A DNA stretch of 64,000 nucleotides, from assembly GCF_036507355.1 (NCBI RefSeq), contig NZ_AP027877.1; one strand, given 5' to 3'. The position numbers were made by a program, and so were the translations under genes. Every line of letters starts with the position of its first letter. Position 1 is the stretch's first letter. The notes under the pieces are model-generated. The model worked only from the letters and a program-made list of their open reading frames with translations. It did not search any database and was not told the DNA's origin. Shown here piece after piece: positions 2,202 to 4,685 of the stretch. The DNA is from Escherichia coli (lineage in GTDB: Bacteria; Pseudomonadota; Gammaproteobacteria; Enterobacterales; Enterobacteriaceae).

Positions 2202-4685
2202 TGGAGCACCTCAAAAACACCATCATACACTAAATCAGTAAGTTGGCAGCATCACCGAAATTAACGGCGGGTATCAGTACATTGAAATGAATGGCACCGC
2301 AGAATACTCCGTATTAAATGATGGTTATCAAATTGTTCAAATGGGTGGCGCGGCAAACCAGACTACCCTCAATAATGGTGTGCTACAGGTTTATGGCGCA
2401 GCGAATGATCCCACGATTAAAGGCGGGCGCTTAATCGTTGAAAAAGATGGGATTACCGTCCTTGCCGCTATCGAAAAGGGAGGATTACTGGAGGTTAAAG
2501 AGGGGGGATTAGCGATTGCGGTAGATCAGAAAGCAGGCGGTGCTATTAAAGCAAGCACGCGGGTCATGGAGGTATTCGGAACAAACCGTCTCGGTCAGTT
2601 CGAAATCAAGAATGGTATTGCTAACAATATGCTGTTGGAAAACGGCGGAAGTTTGCGAGTTGAAGAAAATGACTTCGCTTATAATACTACTGTAGATAGT
2701 GGCGGCTTACTGGAGGTTATGGATGGCGGGACTGCAACTGGCGTTGATAAAAAAGCAGGCGGAAAATTAATTGTCTCAACGAATGCGCTGGAAGTGAGTG
2801 GTACAAACAGTAAAGGCCAATTTAGTATAAAAGATGGTGTGTCAAAAAATTATGAACTGGATGATGGTTCCGGGCTTATTGTTATGGAGGACACGCAGGT
2901 CATTGACACTATCCTCGATGAGCATGCCACTATGCAATCGCTGGGAAAGGATACTGGTACGAGAGTGCAGGCAAATGCGGTATATGATCTCGGTCGATCA
3001 GATCAGAATGGAAGTATAACGTATTCCTCTAAAGCCATCTCTGAAAATATGGTTATCAACAATGGCCGCGCTAATGTCTGGGCTGGCACAATGGTTAACG
3101 TTTCAGTCAGAGGGAATGATGGCATTCTTGAGGTCATGAAGCCGCAAATAAATTATGCACCCGCTATGTTGGTGGGTAAGGTCGTGGTTTCTGAGGGCGC
3201 TTCTTTAAGAACGCATGGTGTCGTGGATACCAGCAAAGCGGATGTTTCGCTCGAAAATAGCGCATGGACCATCATTGCCGATATCACTACGACGAACCAA
3301 AACACCCTCCTCAACTTAGCCAACCTTGCGATGTCTGACGCAAATGTGATTATGATGGATGAGCCAGTGACTCGTTCATCAGTGACGGCAAGTGCGGAAA
3401 ATTTCATTACGTTGACCACCAATACCCTGTCGGGAAACGGCAATTTTTATATGCGTGCCGATATGGCTAATCATCAGAGCGATCAGCTCAACGTCACCGG
3501 TCAGGCAACAGGTGATTTCAAAATATTCGTGACGGACACCGGTGCCAGCCCGGCAGCAGGAGATAGCCTTACACTGGTAACAACGGGCGGCAGTGATGCT
3601 GCATTTACGTTGGGCAATGCCGGAGGCGTTGTTGATATCGGTACGTATGAATATACCTTGCTGGATAATGGCAACCATAGCTGGAGTCTGGCAGAGAATC
3701 GCGCGCAAATTACCCCTTCAACCACTGATGTGCTGAATATGGCGGCCGCACAACCGCTGGTATTTGATGCAGAACTGGACACCGTGCGTGAGCGTCTTGG
3801 TAGCGTAAAAGGCGTTAGTTACGATACGGCGATGTGGAGTTCGGCAATTAACACCCGCAACAACGTGACCACTGATGCGGGAGCTGGTTTTGAGCAAACA
3901 TTGACGGGCCTGACGCTCGGTATCGATAGCCGTTTCTCCCGTGAAGAAAGCAGTACAATTCGCGGCTTGTTCTTTGGTTACTCTCATTCTGATATTGGTT
4001 TTGATCGCGGCGGAAAAGGTAATATCGATAGCTATACCCTGGGGGCTTATGCCGGTTGGGAGCATCAGAACGGTGCCTATGTTGATGGGGTGGTGAAAGT
4101 TGACCGTTTTGCCAACACCATCCATGGCAAGATGAGTAATGGGGCAACAGCGTTTGGCGATTACAATAGTAACGGCGCGGGTGCTCATGTTGAGAGCGGG
4201 TTCCGTTGGGTTGACGGATTGTGGAGTGTTAGACCCTATCTGGCCTTTACCGGCTTTACCACAGATGGTCAGGACTACACGTTATCAAACGGCATGCGCG
4301 CGGACGTGGGAAATACCCGGATATTACGCGCTGAAGCGGGAACGGCGGTAAGCTATCACATGGACCTGCAAAACGGTACGGCGCTGGAACCCTGGCTGAA
4401 AGCCGCCGTGCGTCAGGAATACGCCGATTCTAACCAGGTGAAAGTTAATGACGATGGCAAATTTAATAATGATGTGGCTGGAACCAGTGGCGTTTATCAG
4501 GCTGGGATAAGGTCATCGTTTACCCCGACGTTAAGCGGTCATTTGTCAGTCAGCTATGGCAATGGCGCAGGGGTAGAATCGCCGTGGAATACCCAGGCGG
4601 GTGTGGTCTGGACGTTCTGATAACAGACAATAAACAGGCCGTGATGTGTCGCGGTCTGTTTATCGAATTAAATGCAGATATAAAA

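Follow-up and report, generated by a model that had tools for sequence, protein, structure and literature searches.

The passenger domain of the Escherichia coli autotransporter YejO contains two successive copies of a 74-residue unit. This repeat very probably represents an ancient tandem duplication of a structural module in an AIDA-I-type passenger, from which a one-copy allele was generated by a microhomology deletion. Each module would consist of a protruding hairpin (..EV.GTN..GQF.IK.G..) and, after it, three beta-helix rungs, each about 18-19 residues long; two modules in tandem would give the order hairpin - three rungs - hairpin, as in the elbow that bends Antigen 43 (Ag43) into an L shape. 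The one-copy allele would probably stem from the 11-nt repeats AAAGCAGGCGG, which occupy the same position in each copy: through either replication slippage or recombination independent of RecA, exactly one module would be removed in frame. The repeat as such is a known kind of feature, AIDA passenger repeats being standard and already modelled by Pfam. Two points go beyond annotation: the YejO unit appears to correspond to the hairpin-bearing elbow module of Ag43, which would make the YejO passenger probably bent, and in a common natural allele precisely one module is missing.

yejO in the window and in other strains

The DNA analysed was a stretch of 64,000 nucleotides from E. coli, hereafter called the window. 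An ORF listed at 2287-4620 on the plus strand is only the downstream part of yejO. IS1 interrupts it in the window after codon 78 (codon 78/79) and makes it a pseudogene there, and the repeat is therefore not expressed here within the full protein. The interruption had gone unmentioned in an earlier, sequence-only reading of the window. The insA- and insB-sized ORFs of the element lie on the minus strand, and a second, identical IS1 end was located at 37633-37686. The exact IS1/yejO junction found no one-piece high-identity match in complete E. coli genomes and was absent from GTDB representative genomes. Coordinates of all features are compiled in Table 1.

Table 1. Features of the yejO region; positions refer to the window, residues to the restored protein.
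Feature	Position	Strand	Remarks
yejO 5' fragment (start codon, predicted signal peptide, first rungs)	1253-1488	+	236 nt
8-bp target duplication GAAATTAA around IS1	1481-1488 and 2257-2264		direct reading
IS1, 768 bp, within yejO	1489-2256	-	terminal repeats read directly
yejO 3' fragment: remaining passenger (AIDA repeats, pertactin-like domain) and C-terminal beta-barrel	2257-4620	+	
Repeat copy A, residues 151-224	2479-2700	+	offset-74 diagonal; module HMM score 120.2
11-nt microhomology AAAGCAGGCGG in copy A	2530-2540	+	left junction partner
Predicted beta-hairpin A, residues 182-195, EVFGTN-RL-GQFEIK	2572-2613	+	AlphaFold2, Ag43 alignment
Repeat copy B, residues 225-298	2701-2922	+	offset-74 diagonal; module HMM score 114.8
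11-nt microhomology AAAGCAGGCGG in copy B	2752-2762	+	right junction partner
Predicted beta-hairpin B, residues 256-269, EVSGTN-SK-GQFSIK	2794-2835	+	same motif 74 residues on
tRNA	4724-4797		downstream of yejO

When IS1 and one copy of the target duplication were removed, positions 1253-1488 and 2265-4620 joined to form an uninterrupted ORF of 863 codons. The restored YejO aligns collinearly and gap-free with the annotated 863-amino-acid YejO of strain ET350, and its identity to P0002, the representative of the database cluster, is 99%. The DNA of the gene is 99.3% identical over 2,356 nt to loci annotated as 'autotransporter YejO', with O157:H7-type alleles being closest to the window allele (99.8% in the repeat region). 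The order of genes in related genomes is ccmH, narP, yejO, tRNA-Pro, yejM. This near-identity and the position narP - yejO - tRNA-Pro - yejM identify the gene as the yejO orthologue, and the name assigned to it in the sequence-only reading was right.

Searches with the restored protein retrieved the following Pfam families: (i) AIDA (PF16168) in three stretches (E 1.8e-46, 156.5 bits, cut-off 27); (ii) Pertactin (PF03212; E 7.3e-45, 152.3 bits); (iii) Autotransporter beta-domain (PF03797; E 4.4e-45, 154.9 bits, cut-off 26). Among the NCBIfam models, TIGR01414 matched with an E value of 1.4e-110, and TIGR04415, a 38-residue strand-loop-strand repeat, matched in four stretches. With a C-terminal 12-stranded beta-barrel translocator domain and a beta-helical AIDA passenger with a pertactin-like autochaperone, YejO is a type Va autotransporter of the AIDA-I type. 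The restored N-terminus, MHQSGSVSLCRSAISVLVATALYSPIALAS, is signal-peptide-like by eye. The signal peptide and uninterrupted frame that belong to type Va are not found together in the window, where IS1 separates the N-terminus from the remainder.

Damage to yejO is frequent in E. coli. The yejO gene of strain K-12, described as a pseudogene (PMC11005336), lies at the same locus, has both repeat copies and is 95.5% identical in this region, but is interrupted near its start by IS5 and not, as in the window, by IS1. Other strains carry yejO genes interrupted by IS1, IS2 or IS3. In Nissle 1917 and in the urinary-tract isolate UPEC-774U, yejO remnants with large out-of-frame deletions were found (gene positions 473-1476 or 403-1556, plus 1934-2562). 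The reported absence of yejO from ST131 (PMC5654935) fits a loss of this kind.

The 74-residue unit and its predicted architecture

The sequence-only reading had described two passenger segments of about 75 residues that align with each other, and placed them at 2470-2880. Both statements were essentially borne out, with a unit of 74 residues and full units as listed in Table 1. The peptides quoted in that reading correspond to 2479-2661 (copy A) and 2701-2883 (copy B) in the plus-strand frame, at an offset of 74 amino acids or 222 nt. Aligned without gaps, they share 33 identities (54%) and 42 positives over 61 residues, with a BLOSUM62 score of 163, and the local alignment has this score too. 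Local scores of 26.4 +/- 5.2 were obtained in 2000 shuffles (maximum 67), which corresponds to z = 26. The self-comparison recommended in the same reading was performed over all passenger diagonals: offset 74 was by far the best, with a score of 209 (residues 132-243 paired with 206-317) where shuffles reached at most 52, and internal periodicity is thus significant.

In nucleotide sequence, A and B agree at 56% of positions across the 183 nt encoding these peptides and at 52-54% across the entire 222-nt unit. Identity drops to 31% at third codon positions, and the longest stretch without a mismatch measures 13 nt. Tandem Repeats Finder returned nothing, and a second repeat search at the DNA level did not list the 222-nt pair. 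Given the low DNA identity and the negative outcome of the DNA repeat finders, the repeat is visible at the protein level only.

Similarity at this offset might also be produced by a generic consensus of 18-19-residue rungs recurring at a multiple of the rung length, in which case there would be no distinct duplication of 74 residues. The passenger does have a basal 18/19-residue period which is significant by itself, if weaker (scores of 89 and 53; shuffle maximum 52), and the offset-74 diagonal reaches about one rung past each copy. Against this explanation, to which we give very little credence, offsets 18, 19, 55 and 92-93 all score 89 or less, far from the value at offset 74. Moreover, YejO has just two instances of the hairpin motif G[TSQ][NH]..F.., at a distance of 74 residues, and the four rungs upstream of copy A are without it.

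A duplicated module is also what the comparison with Ag43 points to. In a sequence search of solved structures, YejO matched Ag43 (7KOH, E 9.8e-39; 7KO9, 1.5e-36; 4KH3, 1.6e-29) and also TibA. The strongest stretch aligned YejO residues 150-272 to Ag43 residues 242-361, both repeat copies being matched. The aligned stretch of Ag43 has a two-fold pattern of its own, reading ...GTNRLGNFTVENG...VVLESGGRLDVL... in its first line and ...GTNASGKFSIDG...LLLENGGSFTV... in its second. Hairpin A of YejO aligns to the Ag43 segment ATVIGTNRLGNFTVENG, directly before the conserved first elbow rung, whose YejO counterpart is NMLLENGGSLRVE; hairpin B pairs with the second hairpin segment of Ag43, ATVEGTNASGKFSIDG. 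The Ag43 elbow consists of a hairpin pair flanking three rungs (PMC8993888, PMC6668479), and a comparative study described the elbow joint (EJ) as bordered by hairpins and containing a conserved first rung, VVLE[N/S]GGRLDVL (PMC6668479).

An AlphaFold2 model of the two-copy passenger was obtained from an alignment of 21 sequences (mean pLDDT 89.3). In this model, residues 77-150 form four regular three-strand rungs upstream of copy A. Each copy is predicted to form, past its first rung, two six-residue strands connected by a two-residue turn, with rungs thereafter. Hairpin A was modelled at pLDDT 97-98 (means of 10-residue blocks), and hairpin B together with the following rung at only 52-62. 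When the model was submitted to Foldseek, Ag43 entries ranked first (E 1e-22 to 1e-15) and pertactin was also among the best matches. Global TM-scores between the model and Ag43 were low (about 0.35), which is plausible for bent helices with unequal arms and is no proof of the same geometry.

Alignment and model support the view that the unit comprises one beta-hairpin and three rungs and is a putative counterpart of the Ag43 elbow module. A unit of four plain rungs (74 being close to 4 x 18.5) had been considered as well; it was dropped on the grounds of the same two lines of evidence. The previous description of the repeat as typical of beta-helical autotransporters agrees with the three AIDA stretches, with TIGR04415 and with the matches to the Ag43 and TibA beta-helices; the hairpin within the unit is a refinement of it. 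By analogy, the paired hairpins of YejO would probably set an Ag43-like bend.

Age of the duplication and origin of the one-copy allele

Judged by sequence divergence, the tandem duplication is ancient and far older than E. coli, because synonymous sites between copies A and B are saturated (dN 0.53). Five two-copy alleles were compared, namely those of the window, O157:H7, ET350 and K-12 and a class with 90% identity. All five have kept both copies and the common 11-nt stretch. The nucleotide identity between A and B is 52-54% in each, and gene conversion is thus not indicated. For informative pairs of alleles, dN/dS ranged from 0.07 to 0.36, the best estimate being about 0.09 from the comparison with the divergent allele (dS 0.37); these values indicate purifying selection on the repeat region within the species.

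Amino acid identities among the four modules of YejO and Ag43 are 49% for A-B, 51% for A-Ag43_1, 47% for A-Ag43_2, 38-39% for B-Ag43_1 and B-Ag43_2, and 47% for Ag43_1-Ag43_2. This matrix does not pair A with the first and B with the second Ag43 module as orthologues, and it is ambiguous as to a duplication before the YejO/Ag43 split or in parallel. An HMM of the module proved too permissive, calling plain rungs at spacings of 19, 38 and 56, and was replaced by the hairpin-specific motif. Among 118 relatives of at least 400 residues, this motif was present 0-5 times per protein (74 found, versus 6 in shuffled sequences), and the commonest spacing of neighbouring motifs was about 75-95 residues. 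Accordingly, the number of modules varies on the evolutionary scale of the family.

Comparison of alleles among strains, a further check recommended in the sequence-only reading, led to a precise in-frame deletion of 222 nt. A megablast search of yejO against 5,426 complete E. coli genomes returned a class of matches whose span was 222 nt shorter than the query. One such strain, KBN10P04869, encodes an intact YejO of 789 amino acids (WP_000554212.1) with exactly 74 residues missing. Its single unit is a chimera, identical to copy A up to AAAGCAGGCGG and to copy B thereafter, apart from one allelic difference. Such a switch from A to B is what a deletion between short direct repeats leaves behind. 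A 43-nt junction probe, designed such that it cannot seed on two-copy alleles, matched in 272 of the 5,426 genomes, always at 100%; the resulting proportion of about 5% depends on which clones are sequenced. In a census with positions 2400-2960 of the window as query, both copies were present in about 4,002 genomes, in addition to the one-copy class and a tail of remnants.

Eight intact one-copy carriers were sampled and showed zero differences over 2,370 nt. A ninth had the same junction and, in addition, an IS2 insertion. The eight include isolates from human, turkey, pig, cattle, mutton and fox, collected in Asia, Europe, North America, New Zealand and Israel, and the exact 789-residue sequence was found on at least 1,000 contigs. 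Two-copy alleles differ by 18-31 sites, both mutually and from the one-copy allele. Based on the nine of 272 carriers sampled and on the invariant 43-nt junction, the deletion most likely arose once and spread with its lineage. AlphaFold2 predicted the one-copy passenger with a single hairpin and with confidence throughout the junction (mean pLDDT 93.5, pTM 0.90), which is consistent with the in-register loss of one whole module. By analogy with Ag43, such a loss may alter the geometry of the elbow.

In principle, the 789-residue form might be ancestral, with the two-copy allele derived from it by duplication. The more confident fold of the one-copy model can be quoted in favour of this order of events; it has no direct support otherwise. 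Several observations contradict it and render it extremely improbable: the saturation of synonymous sites dates the A/B duplication far before E. coli, identities among two-copy alleles range over 90-99.8% within the species, including the 90% class, the sampled intact one-copy alleles are without diversity, and the chimeric nature of the single unit (A to the left, B to the right of the 11-nt stretch) is at odds with ancestry.

The sequence-only reading had suggested that the repeat could permit variation in repeat number by slipped recombination. This holds insofar as a one-unit deletion exists in the 272 genomes, with only one type of junction having been found. An active contingency locus, in which slipped-strand or homologous recombination changes the copy number frequently and brings about phase or antigenic variation, is a very improbable description of yejO. 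It could draw on the existence of a natural copy-number variant and on relatives with near-identical tandem hairpin modules (two copies in the P0210 segment), which point to homogenisation or recent duplication elsewhere in the family. Contingency repeats, however, consist of near-identical DNA units, and with 52-56% identity and no identical run beyond 13 nt copies A and B do not. For RecA-dependent recombination to be efficient in E. coli, a few tens of identical bases are generally required, a length not reached by any identical run in A and B. Nor are there many recurrent copy-number alleles: only two states (two copies and one copy) were observed, with a single junction type in 5,426 genomes and one 2,370-nt allele in the sampled intact carriers. 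The reciprocal three-copy junction, as the product of the same microhomology, had no match in the 5,426 genomes, and of the 284 relatives in the database, the 120 that were listed include no protein of 937 amino acids.

Length variants in the database were dismissed as evidence of repeat instability. In all nine proteins inspected (935, 829, 771, 761, 737 and 722 amino acids, and others), the changes lie outside the 74-residue repeat: the pertactin-like region contains a perfect 72-amino-acid duplication, the barrel or the linker carries deletions, or the protein is truncated. Overall, yejO is not an unstable locus: A and B differ too much to recombine by homology, a single type of junction was found, and the eight sampled intact carriers have one and the same allele. 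A single microhomology deletion in an old duplication remains our preferred explanation.

This means that a diverged protein repeat can lose a unit via a chance 11-nt microhomology, but rarely, and that repeats like that of YejO are not to be taken for hypervariable loci. It is conceivable, though on the whole unlikely, that the 789-amino-acid allele has a changed passenger geometry (straighter or differently bent, and presumably shorter) which might alter adhesion or aggregation; if so, this allele would provide a natural test of the role of paired hairpins in Ag43-like adhesins. For the window itself the finding matters little, its yejO being a copy, inactivated by IS1, of an autotransporter that is known but has been little studied. 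Searches of the accessible literature turned up no experiments on the function of YejO.

Comparison with known systems

The one-copy allele resembles other microhomology deletions caused by replication slippage in E. coli in that two 11-nt repeats were joined and one of them was lost together with the intervening DNA. Slippage of this type is a generic mutational route and has not evolved for variation; at yejO it would account for a single event.

With AIDA-I and TibA, YejO shares the basal strand-loop-strand rung of 18-19 residues, PF16168 and TIGR04415 both scoring above their cut-offs. It differs from their 19-residue repeats in that its unit is of higher order, comprising 74 residues including a hairpin, and the AIDA-I family model NF033176 gave only 56 bits against a cut-off of 1200. 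TIGR04415 describes a heptosyltransferase-target repeat; the immediate neighbours of yejO annotated in related genomes, narP and tRNA-Pro, are not heptosyltransferases.

YejO also resembles the elbow of Ag43 (4KH3, 7KOH, 7KO9, 7KOB). Both proteins would share the arrangement hairpin - three rungs - hairpin, with hairpin B being weakly modelled in YejO, and YejO retains the GTN..G.F hairpin motif and the first rung LLENGG. In contrast to Ag43, YejO is encoded at another locus, its N-terminal arm is shorter and its second hairpin is more diverged. With 100.3 bits against a cut-off of 1200 for the Ag43/Cah family model NF033177, YejO is not an Ag43 orthologue but a relative at the level of a paralogue only.

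IS1 in yejO

In this strain yejO is split by an IS1 element after codon 78 of the gene. The nearest alleles are of the O157:H7 type and are 99.8% identical across the repeat region. The IS1/yejO junction had no one-piece high-identity match in 5,426 complete E. coli genomes, nor was it found among GTDB representative genomes. A second IS1 end, identical to that in yejO, lies elsewhere in the window. The window thus contains two or more copies of IS1, a hint of an IS1-rich lineage.

Features in and around yejO and the second IS1 end (window coordinates)
Feature	Position	Strand	Remark
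Palindromic sequences	~100-280		ccmH-narP spacer; e.g. gccggatgcggcgtgaacgccttatccggcctac
IS1 within yejO	1489-2256		8-bp target duplication GAAATTAA at 1481-1488 / 2257-2264
tRNA gene	4724-4797	-	between yejO and yejM; tRNA-Pro by annotation in related genomes
Second IS1 end	37633-37686	-	54 nt identical to IS1 end in yejO

Disrupted and deleted alleles in other strains

Insertion sequences were also observed in yejO of two other strains: in PT109 an IS2 sits in a one-copy allele, i.e. one with a single copy of the 74-residue repeat (locus L009, 580-1808), and VL40 carries an IS2 plus an IS1 (L013, 1258-3607). These insertions are further independent events. Either insertion sequences often land in yejO, or strains tolerate losing it. 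Remnants of the gene, each with two large deletions, were present in Nissle 1917 (L011, 1265-2203) and in the urinary-tract isolate UPEC-774U (L012, 1265-2062). The first deletion differs between these two strains; that of Nissle 1917 starts within repeat copy A (window ~2500).

Length variants and an aberrant sequence among YejO and YejO-like proteins

Protein P0001 (935 aa, from ENA contigs) is a YejO variant whose pertactin-like region contains the 72-residue stretch YMRTDMANHQ...GTYEYTLL twice, as a perfect tandem duplication. This duplication is either very recent or an assembly artefact, and has no relation to the 74-residue repeat. In the barrel region of two 829-aa YejO alleles (P0011 and P0021), 34 residues are deleted in frame. 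The deletion lies between GIDS and NIDS, two short motifs that resemble each other, and may be another one that arose between short repeats. Further, the 350-aa YejO-like sequence P0124 (65% identity) showed systematic substitutions of G by S or K, E by K and D by N (e.g. GETVDGVVLEKD to SKTVNSVVLKKN). This is the pattern expected of G-to-A converted DNA, for example assembled bisulfite-treated or damaged reads, and P0124 is probably a database artefact.

Flanking regions of yejO

The palindromes in the ccmH-narP spacer look like REP elements. On the other side, the tRNA gene adjoining yejO is reported to be a prophage integration site in Shigella flexneri serotype 1c (PMC4924310).
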